From assembly GCF_018977255.1 (NCBI RefSeq), contig NW_024704742.1, forward strand, positions 16,618,001 to 16,682,000: a stretch of DNA of 64,000 bases. Reading direction: 5' to 3'. Positions 3,489-61,303 of the stretch are shown here, in pieces. The stretch's first letter is position 1, and each line of letters starts with the position of its first letter. The notes under the pieces are model-generated. The model saw only the letters and a list, made by a program, of their open reading frames with translations, ran no database searches and was not told the origin of the DNA. A program made the position numbers and the translations under genes. This DNA is from Callorhinchus milii. Its lineage: Eukaryota.

Positions 3489-3797
3489 GGAGTCCTGTAG
3501 CTCAGTGGTTAGAGCACTCGCTTTGCAAGCGAGAGACCTGAGTTCAATTCCATGCAGAGGGCGAAACCTTGGGCAAGTTTCCTTACTCCACACGCCTAAT
3601 AATAATCCCTCCAAAACCAAAAACAATAATAAATTGGTCATTTTCAATCTACGACTGTTTGTGGGACATTGCTGTGCGCAATTGGCTGCCGCGTTCGACC
3701 ACAAATATACAGTTAATTCACTTTACAGTATATTCTGTGAAGCACTTTGAAAAGTCTCAGTGACGTGATAAGGCGCTATATCAAATGCAAGTATTAT
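3489..3797 (+). mobile_element. tRNA-Ala(TGC)-derived SINE, short subfamily, full length
   Basis: GGAGTCCTGTAGCTCAGTGGTTAGAGC A box; anticodon arm CTCGC-TTTGCAA-GCGAG (3517-3533); B box GAGTTCAATTCC; conserved body; L2-like tail. Confidence 0.93.
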
Positions 3798-22009: not shown

Positions 22010-22710
22010 GGTAAAGAGCCTTTCACATCGGGAAGACATCTCAAGCTCTTCACAAGCTTCACTGTGAAGTGGAGGGACTGTTCACTTGTAGACAAGTAAA
22101 TTAAAGACAAAGCACATTATGTAATTAATCGGAAGGATTCTTGGCTTGGAAGCTAGGAGAATTGTGGTTTGGGATCTTCAACATCAACCTAACTAAACAA
22201 TTGGGACCTCAATTTAACACCTTATCCAAAAGTCTCTAACTTAGTCCTGCAGGAGTCCTGTAGCTCGATGGTTAGAGCATTTGCCTTGCAAGCAAGAGAC
22301 CTGGGTTCGATTCCAGGCAGGGCGAAACTTTGGGCAAGTTTCCTTACTCCACATGCCTAATATTAATCCCTCAAGAAAAAAAGCATAAATAAATTGGTCA
22401 CTTCAATTCATGACTGTTTGTGGGACACTGCTGTGTGCAATTGGCTGCGGTGTTTCGCCCACAAATATATAGGCAATTCACTTTGCAGTCTATTCTGTGA
22501 AGCGCTTTGAGACGTCCAGATTAGGTGAAAAGTGCTATAATCAAATGCAAGGATTATTATTATTAAGTCTGCACCTTTGGCAATGCAGCACTTTGTCAGT
22601 ACTGAACTAGAATGTCAAGCTAGATAGACAGTGAGATAAATTCTCAATGTGGGGTTTCAGCCGACAAACTTTGGATGAAGAAGCATCAGTGTCACCAACT
22701 GAGCCAAGCT
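22010..22710 (-). mobile_element. Older DeuSINE (SacSINE1-like) split by a young SINE
   Basis: Reverse-complement blocks GGGATCTT..GGACCTCAATTTAAC..TCCAAAAG (left) and CACCTTTGGCAATGCAGCACT..CAGTACTG...CCAACTGAGCCA (right). Confidence 0.6.
22252..22564 (+). mobile_element. tRNA-Ala SINE, short subfamily
   Basis: GGAGTCCTGTAGCTCGATGGTTAGAGC...GGTTCGATTCC...CAAGGATTATTATTATT. Confidence 0.93.
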
Positions 22711-26060: not shown

Positions 26061-26190
26061 CTCTAAAGGTCATTGACCTGAAAAGTTAATTCACTTTCCT
26101 CTACCCATAGATGCTGCCTGACCTGCTGAGTGTTCCCAGAGAATTCTGTTTCTTTTTCAGATTTCCAGCATCTGCAGTATTTGCCTTTTC
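26061..26190 (+). mobile_element. Short Penelope 3'-terminal unit with decayed hammerhead
   Basis: AGGTC-ATT-GACCT-GAAA stem II and box, then CATAGATGCTGCCTGACCTGCTGAGTGTTCCCAG...CAGATTTCCAGCATCTGCAGTATTT as in 21500-21565. Confidence 0.8.
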
Positions 26191-41315: not shown

Positions 41316-41677
41316 ATAATAATAATAATCCTTGCATTTGATATAGAGCTTTATCATGTCTTCGAGACATCTCAAAGCGCTTACAGAATATGCTGTAAGT
41401 GAATTGACTGCATATTTTGTGGACAAAAAGTGGCAGCCAATTGCGCACATCAGTGTCCCACAAGTAGTCGTGGATTGATTGACCACTTTATTTATTTTTT
41501 TGAAGGAATTATTAACCCCAGAAAAATGATTCGCCAATCGACTAACAACAGGTTCCTACGTGCTGCTAAGTAAACAGAGGTGCGTGAAGTAAGGAAACTT
41601 GTCCAACGTTTCGCCCTGCCTGGGAATTGAACCCAGGTCTCTCACTTGCAAAGCAAGTGCTCTAACCACTGAGCTAC
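41316..41677 (-). mobile_element. tRNA-Ala SINE, long subfamily
   Basis: Head plus internal CCTCTGTTTACTTAGCAG...GTTAGTCGATTGGCG segment, body and tail. Confidence 0.92.
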
Positions 41678-43530
41678 CAAGCTAGGCTTCAGGCATTGTT
41701 TGAGTGTAATTGAGTCAGCAAGCTGTGCACATGAGCACTGAATACCATCCAACATTGCAACTGCATTATAACCAAATTTACATCATAAATTTGATTATAA
41801 TGAAGCACATTATAATGGAACTGTACTGTAATGCCTATCATGTAGGAAATATGTCACAAAGTACTTAATTGAAGTATTAAATTATGGGCAATGCACTTTG
41901 TTTCTTGCCTTTTGTCAATCCTTGCTCCCTTGAAAAGTTGGCAACCATACCTGCCCCTCCTGCTGATGAAAATTCCCTTAACATAAACAGCTCTGAACAT
42001 GAACCAGCAATTAATGTTCTTTCTCCGAATTCCTATAGATAGCAGTCCAGGCTTATTCAGTGCATAAAATCTAATTGTTCATGAGATGAAGCTTTTATCA
42101 GTGATTCCAAACTTTATGTCTTTGAAGAATTAAACATGTTCATCTACATATGTATATACAATCTAATTCTAAAGAAAGTATCCTACATTCAGGAAAATCG
42201 GTAGAAATGCTCTGTGCTTCAAAACAGAATGCTGCAGTAGGCAGAACGTTGTCTTATCATCTGCTTGACCTAGGTTAGACTCTAGGCCATTTAAGTGGGA
42301 TAAGCATCTCATGCATGTGATGGTCTTAAGTGAAATTAGTTCAGACAGCTTTGAACTCTTGTTAACCAGAACTTGGAGTACTGGACACATAAAACAATAT
42401 GCTCCAGTCATCTTGATCTCAAATCTATGTTTCCTATCATCCTCCCTCTTCCCCCTCCCTACACAATATTCCTTGTAAAATTCTCAAGGACAAGTCAGGT
42501 AATTTATTAAATCTGATATCAGATTAGTTCCAGTATCTACAATGCATATTTGTGAATGCAGTTTTAGTAAGATGCACATTGTAAATCTTAGAGGAAACTA
42601 CCCATTTTCTGCCCAGTCTCCCAAGACTAGAACAATTATTCCCAGCTATGCCTCCTTGGACAAACATTCACAGCATTTTACTGCTCTTCATAGTGCACAG
42701 AAAGACAAGTTTTCTTCAGTCTGATCCTCAGGAGATTTTAGATGTAGCAACATTTAGCTTGTTCATTCATTTTACATTGGCATGCACTATCAGTCAATAG
42801 TTTTGCTGCTTGCCTTCTGGATCAATCTTATTTCCAAGGGAAGCAACTTTATATTTTATCATCTCCTTGAGGAGAATTATCTTTTTTGCATGAGTGTCTG
42901 CATTTGAAGGCCCAATATCTGAACAAGTGTTGATTGGCAATGAGACAGACAGGGTTATGATGTGGGATAAAGAGAGAGAGAATTGTGGTGCGAAGCTCTC
43001 ATTGGAAAAACAGCAGTGTAAATATCACTCACAATTGGAAAAAGTCTTCAGGACTTACAAAGTCCATGTCCTGCAGGGTACCCTATATAAATTGTGCCGA
43101 CTTCTGAGAATTCAGTTCCAATTCAAAATCTCACTGAAGCCAAGCTTTCACAAGTCTGTGTGACATCCGTGGCGCTCCCTAGAAGAGATGTACTTTACAC
43201 CTTGAGGCACTGTCTCAGTGCATGGTGCCAATTATATTGCCAATATTTTAAATTAGTGCGTTATCAACACAGTCACTTTCAGCATCTTCAACAACTTCTC
43301 AGCTGAGATCCTCTAACTTAGTACAGGGAAAGTATTGAATGGCCATCCTTGTCTATAGGGCTTAGAATTATGCTATTTGTTTCATTTGGTTGAATGTCCA
43401 CCACGATCACTTTAATGAATCAAACTTGTTTAATATGTAACACTGGGATTATTAGGAGGACAATTTTTCACAATTAATCGTTTAATTCTGAGAATTGCAA
43501 TCAATGAATAATATTTGATTAAAAAACCGT

Positions 43531-43873
43531 AGTGGTTAGAGTGCTTGCTTCCCAAGCAATAGGACCCGGGTTCGATTCCCGGTTAGAGTGAAACTTTAGG
43601 CAGCTTTCTTACTTTATACACGCTACCCAGAAGTATGTAGGAATCTGGTTGTCAACTAGTCGATTGGCGGATTGCTTTCAGGGGTAACAATCCCTTCAAA
43701 AAAATAATAATAATAATAATAATTTGGTCACTCAAGCCATGATTGTGGGCTACTACTGAGCGCAATTGGTTGGTGCGTTTCGCTCACAAAATCTTCACTT
43801 TACAAAATATTCTGGGGGCGCTTTGAGACGTCTCAACGATGCGATAAGAGGCTATATCAACTGCAAGGATTAT
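43531..43873 (+). mobile_element. tRNA SINE, long subfamily, diverged
   Basis: AGTGGTTAGAGTGC...GGTTCGATTCCC...AGTCGATTGGCGGATTGC...tail. Confidence 0.85.
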
Positions 43874-57557: not shown

Positions 57558-58216
57558 ATATCTCTTTATAATGTGTACTGGTGATGTCTCTATTCAACAG
57601 AATTAAAGCACAAGATAAATCCCAGTACACTTAGATGGAATTACTCTGTTGCTTGACTTACTGATACAGGTTTTGGGAAGCCTCCTGGTATTGCTGCTCA
57701 AAGATCTGTTTAAGGACAGACCGCTCTGGTTGAGCTATCAGGAGGATGCCAGCTCCCGTTGATCAGTCCATCTGCTTTACCCCATTCCCCAAAAGTATCC
57801 TTCTTTTGGGGAATGGAATAAAGCAATGTTTCCTTGGAGCTGAGCTGCACTTTCCACCTTCCATTAATGCTCCTATGAATCCTCCTCCACTTTTATCTCC
57901 TCACCCTCATCACCTCTTGTTGACCCTTCATCAGATGGCCATGCTAGTAGCTGAGCTGGTGTGTGCACATGTAAGTAATAATGCTGGACCTGATGTTACA
58001 CTTGGACTCAGTACAGACGATATGCCTCTTTCCTATCTTTCCCAGTCATTGCCTCTCTTGAGGGGCTTAGACAACCTATGGATGTGGCTATCAATAAATG
58101 GAGATAAAGACCTGAAATCATACTCAGGATAACTTTGGATATGTTGTAATTATAGTGTTGTATCATATAAACATATAAGTGGTTACAATTTAAACAAAAA
58201 TACACTTATCTTTTGT

Positions 58217-58252
58217 GTTCTGACGAAGAGTCGTGGACCCGAAACGTTGACT
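58217..58252 (+). ncRNA. Hammerhead ribozyme motif
   Basis: GTT-CTGACGA-A-GAGTC-GTG-GACCC-GAAA-CGTT-GAC; one mismatch in stem II. Confidence 0.7.
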
Positions 58253-58353
58253 CACTTTCCTTTCTCCATAGATGCTGCCTGACCGACTGAGTTTTCCCAG
58301 CTCTCTCTGTTTTTGTTTCAGATTTCTAGCATTTGCAGTATTTTGTGTTCTGA
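58217..58353 (+). mobile_element. 137-bp Penelope-derived mini-insert beginning at the hammerhead motif
   Basis: Matches 21463-21565 and extends to the terminal sequence; exact 15-bp TSD ACACTTATCTTTTGT at 58202-58216 and 58354-58368. Confidence 0.9.
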
Positions 58354-58588
58354 ACACTTATCTTTTGTTTAGAAAAACTATAATATTGGTCCAAATCAGC
58401 AGTCACTTACATTACTTTCACTATCTTCATACACCCAGAAATCTTCATCATTCTCTTGTGCGTCATCAACTATATTTGAGTTGATGGCCCTTCACCAATA
58501 TCACCCATGGGCACTATTTAAGAGTCTTGATTCTTACGGATGGATTGTAATATATTTCTAATCTTTCATCAGCATCAATATTTCAGTT

Positions 58589-60342: not shown

Positions 60343-60671
60343 AATAATAATAATAATAATAATAATCCTTGCATTTGATATAGCGCTTTTCACGTCGGGA
60401 GGACGTCCCAAAGCGCTTCACAGAACACACTGTAAAGTGAATTGACTGTATATTTATGGGCGAACGCGGCAGCCAATTGCGCACAGCAATGTCCCACAAA
60501 CAGTCGTAGATTGAAAATGACCAATTTATTATTGTTTTTGGTTTTTGGAGGGATTATTATTAGGCTCTGTGTGGAGTAAGGAAACTTGCCCAAGGTTTCG
60601 CCCTGCCTGGAATTGAACTCAGGTCTCTCGCTTGCAAAGCGAGTGCTCTAACCACTGAGCTACAGGTCTCC
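60343..60671 (-). mobile_element. tRNA-Ala SINE, short subfamily, young
   Basis: Full length; TSD CAAGGAT at 60336-60342 and 60673-60679. Confidence 0.95.
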
Positions 60672-61000: not shown

Positions 61001-61303
61001 AATAATAATAATAAATATTCCTTGCATTTGATAAGGCGCTTTTCACATCTTCTCGACATCTCAAAGCGCTTCATAGAATAGACTGTAAAGTGACTGTATA
61101 TTTGTGAGCGAAACACGGCAGCCAATTGCGCACAGCAGTGTCCCACAAACAGTCAATGACCAACTTATTATTGTTTTGTTTTGGAGGGATTATTATTAGG
61201 CGTGTGGAGTAAGGAAATTTGCCCAAGTTTCGCCCTGCCTGGAATTGAACCCAGGTGTCTCACTTGCAAAGCGAATGTTCTAACCACTGAGCTACAGGAC
61301 TCC
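61001..61303 (-). mobile_element. tRNA-Ala SINE, short subfamily, apparently inserted in an older DeuSINE relic (about 60930-61395)
   Basis: Full length; flanks carry AAATGACCAATT and GGCAGAGGGGCCCTCAGTTTAAC Deu-type remnants. Confidence 0.9.

Follow-up and report, generated by a model that had tools for sequence, protein, structure and literature searches.

The window analysed here is a 64,000-nucleotide stretch of the Callorhinchus milii genome (contig NW_024704742.1). A 137-bp insert at 58217-58353 begins at a minimal type-I hammerhead ribozyme (min-HHR) motif, ends at the 3' terminus of a Penelope-like element (PLE) and is bracketed by an exact 15-bp target-site duplication. Positions within the insert are numbered q1 to q137, with q1 at 58217. 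The features of the locus, together with an older copy of the same module elsewhere in the window, are:

58202 to 58216, no strand: left copy of the target-site duplication, ACACTTATCTTTTGT, identical to 58354-58368
58217 to 58353, plus strand: 137-bp insert, the 3'-terminal module of a PLE, subfamily A (sequence and BLAST)
58217 to 58252, plus strand: min-HHR motif (sequence and published motif rules)
58320 to 58353, plus strand: 34-nt tail between the alternative 3' termini of the family, at about q103 and at q136/137 (inverted-arm ends and genome counts)
58354 to 58368, no strand: right copy of the target-site duplication, 15 bp, identical to the left copy
26061 to 26190, plus strand: older, diverged copy of the module with an inverted 5' stub of about 10 nt (q14-127 at 81.6%, and sequence)

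The two 15-mers ACACTTATCTTTTGT that bracket the insert are identical by script and lie 152 bases apart, leaving an insert of 137 nt; an exact 15-mer repeat at that distance is far beyond chance. The insert opens with GTTCTGACGA, its CTGACGA box (58220-58226) is preceded by the three-base 5' strand of helix I, and its other end coincides with the 3' terminus of the family. The initial annotation, which had described a 137-bp unit with an exact 15-bp duplication that starts directly at the hammerhead and runs to the Penelope 3' terminus, was therefore correct on all of these points. It was also correct that TTTTGTGTTCTGA occurs both at the left junction (58211-58223) and at the insert end (58341-58353, or q125-137), with 13 of 13 bases matching. 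At the 3' terminus, other members of the family have ...GTATTTTGTGTTTTG and then T or A, often TT, C or T, and A; the terminal GTTCTGA of the window insert is one T-to-C change away from this family end. On this sequence comparison, the repeat of the first seven bases of the insert at its own end is private to the window copy and is not a family trait. BLAST of the insert against the window returned four related stretches: 21463-21567 (q1-104, 89.5% identity); 17885-17785 on the minus strand (q1-58 and q92-136); 26069-26182 (q14-127, 81.6%); and the 13-mer TTTTGTGTTCTGA at 58211-58223, which repeats q125-137. The third is the similar unit that had been noted at 26061-26190 as starting near the ribozyme; the similarity holds, but the copy is old. 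By eye it extends to about q2, and an inverted stub of about 10 nt (TCATCAGAAC) precedes it.

The hammerhead consists of the helix I 5' strand GUU (58217-19), the box CUGACGA (58220-26), an extra A (58227), helix II (GAGUC GUG GACCC, 58228-40), the box GAAA (58241-44), a palindromic ACGU (58244-47), U17 (58248) and the helix I 3' strand GACU (58249-52). The predicted cut falls after q32, between 58248 and 58249. Helix II has the form GGGUC-GUG-GACCC in the family, and the GAGUC of the window copy leaves one A.C mismatch at pair 10.2-11.2. Published hallmarks of the min-HHRs of metazoan PLEs are an extra base after A9, a G10.1-C11.1 pair, a palindromic 15.2-16.2 and a short helix I (PMC4209133), and all four are present in the family motif. 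Among 99 family arms, the extra A is found in 99 and G10.1-C11.1 in 83, and q28-31 most often reads ACGU (80-97% at each position). Both core boxes (CUGANGA and GAAA) are intact in the window copy and in 60 of the 99 arms, most of the changes in the boxes being CpG decay. No double compensatory helix changes were found in the 99 arms, solely one-sided transitions (G-U, A.C), the copies being too alike for this test. No match to the hammerhead families of Rfam was obtained for the window at the gathering score or for four loci at E values up to 10; the sole Rfam matches were to tRNA-like short interspersed nuclear elements (SINEs), together with meaningless miRNA-type matches on hairpins. The 137-nt RNA is predicted to fold at -23.5 kcal/mol (z +1.14), and 174 of 200 shuffled sequences fold as well; min-HHR monomers are described as unstable (PMC4209133). 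On the reading preferred below, the hammerhead is a passenger in the unit and causes neither of its ends.

The 0.99-Gb assembly contains 1,926 first-look candidates for the insert, and 40 that were scored are 93-95% identical to it over nearly the whole length. The PLE family whose 3'-terminal module the insert represents has thousands of copies in the genome. Known PLE traits found in this family are the min-HHR, a 34-nt tail that separates two 3' termini, inverted arms on the 5' side and AT-rich target duplications, and the earlier suggestion that Penelope machinery mobilised the unit holds, the unit being a product of that machinery. The 26-mer that closes the module is present in 610 exact genomic copies (its reversed control in 0). 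Ends were studied in the first 70 genomic places of this 26-mer, taken irrespective of upstream sequence and aligned to a long copy; the sample comes from a single contig, consists of young copies because an intact 26-mer was required, and does not include the window insert.

Two 3' termini are used. Of 36 inverted arms, 27 stop at q96-107 and none extends past q107, and in all 36 cases only one of the two arms carries the tail; where duplications fix it, the terminus at about q103/104 reads AAACAAAAACAGAG.... Genome-wide, 991 arms carry the 27-mer ending at this first terminus, and 561 continue into the tail. An optional tail of 30-40 bp, often at one end only, has been described for PLEs (PMC8557442, PMC11167929) and attributed by Frangieh et al. 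to two adjacent internal start sites of the reverse transcriptase (RT) (PMC11167929); the two 3' termini fit two such start sites and a one-end tail. Beyond the 3' terminus, no two of the 68 sampled 3' ends have sequence in common, barring insertions into other repeats. The bases at +1 to +4 after ...GTGTTTTG in these 68 copies are uneven (T in 47 of 68, T in 39, T or C in 30 and 24, A in 37); RT may start up to four bases further downstream, or there may be a target bias at these positions.

At the other end, 56 of the 70 sampled copies are 5'-truncated, starting at or after q-19, and the starts are not spread evenly. The tailed arm starts at or before -20 in 14 copies, at -19 to -6 in 2, at -5 to +6 in 27, at q7-29 in 11, at q30-35 in 4, at q36-103 in 9 and at or after q104 in 3. 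The 27 starts in a 12-base window compare with an even spread of the 56 truncated copies at a binomial P of 6.6e-16. A plot of 5' starts had been proposed as the test of the initial annotation; the peak at the hammerhead edge is present (27/70). Solo units like that in the window account for 16 or 17 of these 27 copies and hairpins for the remainder; where a solo copy has a clear duplication, its first base lies at -5 to +2. A coarse genome-wide check gave 3,485 places for a hammerhead 27-mer versus 1,545 for the 27-mer spanning -14 to +13. Contigs assembled from four sequencing runs have loose ends clustered at the q1 boundary (L016, 1634-1636), which merely repeats the genomic picture. The literature covered gave no example of copies sharing a sharp 5' end where helix I begins; the supplementary figures of two papers (PMC11167929, PMC4209133) fall outside that scope and may show end distributions.

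About 30 of the 70 sampled copies have an inverted arm directly upstream, and at least one arm reaches the region -5 to +9 in 21 of 29 hairpin copies. Because 19 of the 22 hairpins called automatically each lie between the copies of an exact flank repeat of at least 8 bases, versus 2.45% of 2,000 mismatched flank pairs drawn from the family, each hairpin represents one insertion event. Head-to-head junctions with both hammerhead boxes intact occur at 34 places genome-wide, every one with a different spacer. Several copies (L002, L005 and the window copy at 26061) have only an inverted stub of about 10 nt. The hairpin forms correspond to the inverted 5'-truncated copy of the PLE literature and fit the two-strand cutting and extension seen in vitro for the Anolis enzyme (PMC11167929). 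At one place (G000:C12:4147304-4147421) two tail-bearing arms lie on opposite strands, 65 nt apart; the pair looks like a rare hairpin with tails on both arms and its turn near q52.

Sequence marker q80-90 divides the family into subfamily A (CTCTCTC), to which the window insert belongs, and subfamily B (GCGACTT), represented in the window by a large PLE insertion at 17780-21565. Subfamily A comprises 9 solo, 19 hairpin and 3 long forms, and subfamily B 8 solo, 8 hairpin and 10 long forms. Because the short forms occur in both subfamilies, alongside long copies and with individually different junctions, the short copies are made anew each time.

The target sites are AT-rich, as had been proposed from the window alone: 27 exact duplications have a mean length of 11.4 bases and an A+T content of 72.5%, versus 61.6% in the flanks, and PLE endonucleases are known to prefer AT-rich targets (PMC11167929). 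The initial annotation had further pointed to CTTATC as common to the targets of the insert and of the large element. The motif does recur in the element orientation: among 67 other copies, 3 (L049, L056 and L095) have it no more than 25 nt past the 3' end, versus 0.26 expected (P 0.0008). This hints that the endonuclease, besides favouring AT-rich DNA, has a weak sequence preference. In the large element, CTTATC has the opposite orientation relative to the minus-strand tailed arm. Another copy, L044, adjoins TTATCTTTTGT, which is nearly the target of the window insert itself. The TTTTGT of the duplication was considered as a tail-like target preference and is attributed to chance, TTTTG or its complement being present in 2 of 27 duplications versus 1.3 expected (P 0.38).

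Our preferred reading, to which we assign a probability of roughly 0.6, is that the insert is a dead-on-arrival, very short copy of the PLE 3' module whose 5' end was set by RT running off the 5' end of its template RNA, that end being in turn a transcription start in the pseudo-long terminal repeat (pseudo-LTR). The element endonuclease would have nicked an AT-rich target with a 15-bp stagger; RT would have begun at the distal start site, q136/137, so that the copy carries the 34-nt tail, and would have copied 137 nt before running off the template and joining the other target end. Within 137 nt of its start, a transcript from the pseudo-LTR would already contain the sites at which RT begins, and initiation there followed by run-off would give exactly this unit. 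Because a common 5' end is found in about 4 of 10 young copies, in solo units and in hairpin turns, a discrete RNA 5' end probably lies at the 5' edge of the hammerhead. We infer from the adjoining bases that it may be the transcription start of the pseudo-LTR promoter: TTAAAA lies 30 to 25 bases upstream of q1 in 13 of the 16 long copies shown, followed by CCA|GTTC. The initiator pattern is YYANWYY, and CCA|GTTC around q1 appears initiator-like. In D. virilis, transcription of Penelope likewise starts within the pseudo-LTR (PMC2377424, PMC8557442). On this view the 137-bp unit, which appears to lack a promoter, does not propagate by itself.

Several points weigh against this reading. The D. 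virilis start lies not at the hammerhead but 46 nt before a 75-bp intron that abuts it (PMC2377424, PMC4209133); the bases before q1 (a pyrimidine run and CAG) also resemble a splice acceptor; and TTAAAA is a weak look-alike of a TATA box. The run data behind the loose ends at q1 are assembled contigs, which cannot show RNA ends. The 11 of 70 copies that start at q7-29 form a shoulder on the peak, starts were read from BLAST ends with an accuracy of about 3 bases and only some were checked against duplications, and the 70 copies come from one contig and are young through the choice of an intact 26-mer. Finally, subfamily A makes up more of the short forms (28/44) than of the long ones (3/13), which a partly separate short-form lineage could explain.

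The q1 end could instead be made after transcription: a longer transcript would be trimmed 5'-to-3' until PLE protein seated on the hammerhead-to-tail region stops the exonuclease, or some other processing would act at the motif boundary. The stretch of RNA that spans the hammerhead and the RT start sites is bound by the PLE protein, which also aids hammerhead cleavage in vitro (PMC11167929), the end falls exactly on the first base of helix I, and the 5' ends span about 7 nt (-5 to +2), as trimming would yield. A spread of a few bases is, however, just as typical of a transcription start cluster, and trimming leaves the conserved TTAAAA at -30 and the initiator-like match unexplained; we regard such processing as unlikely. 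Stalling or falling off of RT at the folded ribozyme, an ordinary 5' truncation with a structural hot spot, would accord with 5' truncation as the PLE rule (PMC8557442) and with a hot spot that adjoins the motif. A structural block is nevertheless very improbable because RT moves 3'-to-5' and has fully copied the motif before it stops; a block predicts ends at about q36, where there is no peak. The instability of min-HHR monomers (PMC4209133) and the lack of excess folding energy (z +1.14, no better than shuffles) likewise speak against it, and hammerhead mutants leave insertion size unchanged in vitro (PMC11167929), so truncation caused by the structured ribozyme, as the initial annotation had offered, is not upheld. 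Self-cleavage of the hammerhead as the source of the template 5' end is the least credible of these explanations. It fits a minority of copies: 4 of 70 start at q30-35, and in hairpin L057 the two arms both stop at precisely G33, directly past the predicted cut. An even spread would, however, already give 2 to 3 such starts, and 4 of 70 exceeds that only slightly; the window insert and the main peak lie 32 nt upstream of that cut, and Anolis RNA is reported without reads at the cut site (PMC11167929). The turn of L057 (G000:C1:36674622-36677647) at G33 is a possible copy of a self-cleaved RNA.

Quite unlikely, too, is a discrete non-autonomous element, SINE-like or retrozyme-like, with transcribed masters of its own that borrows the PLE enzyme and possibly uses a tandem or circular RNA template. 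The sharpness of the 5' end (27/70) and the excess of subfamily A among short forms (28/44 versus 3/13 among long ones) would suit such an element, and PLE pseudo-LTRs are regarded as the origin of non-LTR retrozymes (preprint 10.64898/2026.07.22.740005). A self-propagating lineage is contradicted by the presence of solo, hairpin and long forms in both subfamilies and by 5' junctions and hairpin spacers that vary from copy to copy. The unit also lacks the upstream TTAAAA region, and no obvious promoter was seen inside it, although no promoter scan was run. The tandem arrays that the initial annotation had suggested looking for are absent: a 3' end followed by a hammerhead box within 25 nt was found at 0 places in the 0.99-Gb genome, versus 34 head-to-head junctions at the same stringency. 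Copying from a circular or tandem RNA is further opposed by the duplicated GTTCTGA, which is private to the window copy, and by the predicted cut lying 32 nt inside the unit; a hammerhead-processed RNA would have its ends at q32/33 and not at q1 and q137. Non-LTR retrozymes (PMC7229834; Li et al. 2026, preprint) resemble the insert in being short, hammerhead-bearing and related to PLE pseudo-LTRs, with dispersed 'monomer' derivatives. In the accounts covered, however, they form tandem repeats with canonical type-I hammerheads and circular RNAs, whereas no tandem junctions and a minimal hammerhead are found here, and the ends of the insert do not match the predicted cleavage site. Retrozyme hammerheads have a helix I of about 6 bp, a helix II of about 4 bp and interacting loops; here helix I is 3-4 bp and open, and the family helix II, of 5 bp with a bulged A, is unlike the canonical type-I form. 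Retrozyme RNAs are abundant, highly self-paired circles of 170-400 nt; as predicted from its fold, the 137-nt RNA is not highly self-paired (z +1.14).

A more speculative reading, possible but doubtful, is that a dedicated short leader RNA, running from the hammerhead edge to the RT start sites, is the preferred in vivo template of the PLE, and that the hairpins of about 240 bp are the footprint of two-strand priming by a dimeric enzyme. The enzyme would prime both target strands at once, with a different start site for each protomer, giving arms that end at q103/104 and q136/137 and both turn at q1. If true, this would match, for the first time in vivo, the two-site, two-strand priming that an Anolis PLE shows in vitro.

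Heavily truncated PLE copies with a single min-HHR have been described before, and the unit is one of them. Cervera and de la Pena (2014) considered most min-HHR motifs to be single and probably to represent truncated PLEs (PMC4209133). Their dispersed motifs have the same architecture (an extra base after A9, a long helix II, a helix I of 3-4 bp and a palindromic helix III) and are likewise present in thousands per genome, mostly single, with some close opposite-strand pairs. The parts of that paper covered here do not state where the truncated copies start; the 5' ends of the present family peak at q1, where helix I begins. Poseidon PAc of Anolis carolinensis (Frangieh et al. 2024, PMC11167929) also has two adjacent RT starts that define a tail of 30-40 bp, with start sites about 70-105 nt downstream of the hammerhead cut, as here. 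PAc cuts and extends both target strands, which would yield the head-to-head insertions seen here; AT-rich targets are common to both, and the PAc hammerhead is dispensable for insertion. PAc differs in that its reading frame starts inside the hammerhead and RT starts within the open reading frame of tandem copies. An Anolis-like start at the ATG at q56 is not supported: among 150 places scored out of 6,119 candidates, no frame crossing the unit exceeds 115 codons, and no two sampled copies share sequence past the 3' end. The general anatomy of PLEs (Craig et al. 2021, PMC8557442) includes 5' truncation, an inverted 5'-truncated copy and a one-end tail, all present here; compared with PLE insertions in general, the copies are extreme, at 137 bp in whole or about 240 bp as a hairpin.

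In human L1 twin priming, which produces 5' inversions, priming occurs from both target strands in one insertion event. It inverts a different, more 5' part of the RNA, whereas both arms here copy the same stretch from two start sites. For genome annotation, such units should be masked as truncated PLEs and not as retrozymes or new ribozyme genes. For the study of PLE mechanism, they supply thousands of natural insertion products with three sharp ends (two 3' starts and one 5'), from which the template RNA and a two-strand priming model could be read, a good natural record of enzyme action.

The remaining features of the window relate to the large element and to SINEs:

17780 to 21565, minus strand: large, decayed, 5'-truncated PLE insertion, subfamily B, in hairpin form (BLAST and flanking repeat)
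18600 to 18905, minus strand: GIY-YIG endonuclease-end remnant of the PLE reading frame (open frame)
3495-3557, 20008-20079, 20844-20906 and 22254-22325: tRNA-derived SINE heads
41620-41676, 43518-43590, 60598-60669 and 61230-61301: tRNA-derived SINE heads

Two of the BLAST stretches, 17885-17785 and 21463-21567, are the ends of this one large insertion. The tailed 3' arm of the large element ends at 17780 on the minus strand, and the inverted plus-strand arm is tail-less and ends at 21565/21566, at about q103/104. The flanks are CACTACTTATCAT (17767-17779) and CACTATTTATCAT (21566-21578), or CACTA[C/T]TTATCAT. A simple hairpin does not account for the order of blocks in the two arms, between which a SINE and a 50-bp block have changed places; later insertions or a more complex origin are suggested. 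The reading frames upstream of the module end in ...VVYCIR.S.CGLLYIGET.RRLGDRFAEHLRSV, and a better copy of this remnant is found in L101; the GIY-YIG remnant has 4,065 first-look candidates in the genome. Canonical PLEs are defined by an RT with a GIY-YIG endonuclease C-terminal to it (PMC8557442). Database relatives of the L101 remnant (49-68% identity), annotated merely as uncharacterised proteins of cartilaginous fishes, have RVT_1 (69.1 bits in P0003) followed by GIY-YIG at 16.9-21.8 bits, slightly below the cut-off of 22.6; the canonical make-up is thus indicated for the family through these relatives only. Pfam searches of eight frames of the large element and two of L101 gave no relevant match, and no intact full-length PLE was seen among the copies inspected. 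L101 (G000:C4:58467300-58470900) has a frame of more than 400 codons on the minus strand (3-1262) that leads from the PLE endonuclease remnant through the 3' region into the start of a long interspersed nuclear element (LINE) endonuclease. L101 had been considered as a full-length PLE on the strength of an apparent 826-codon frame; this was rejected, the remnant being read through into the LINE endonuclease, and the frame is an accidental read-through of nested repeats and no gene.

The eight SINE heads were detected as tRNA-model matches of 35-53 bits. SINE copies sit within the large element (17780-21565); the two heads inside it are inverted and share 95.5% identity, versus 83-88% for the surrounding PLE arms.

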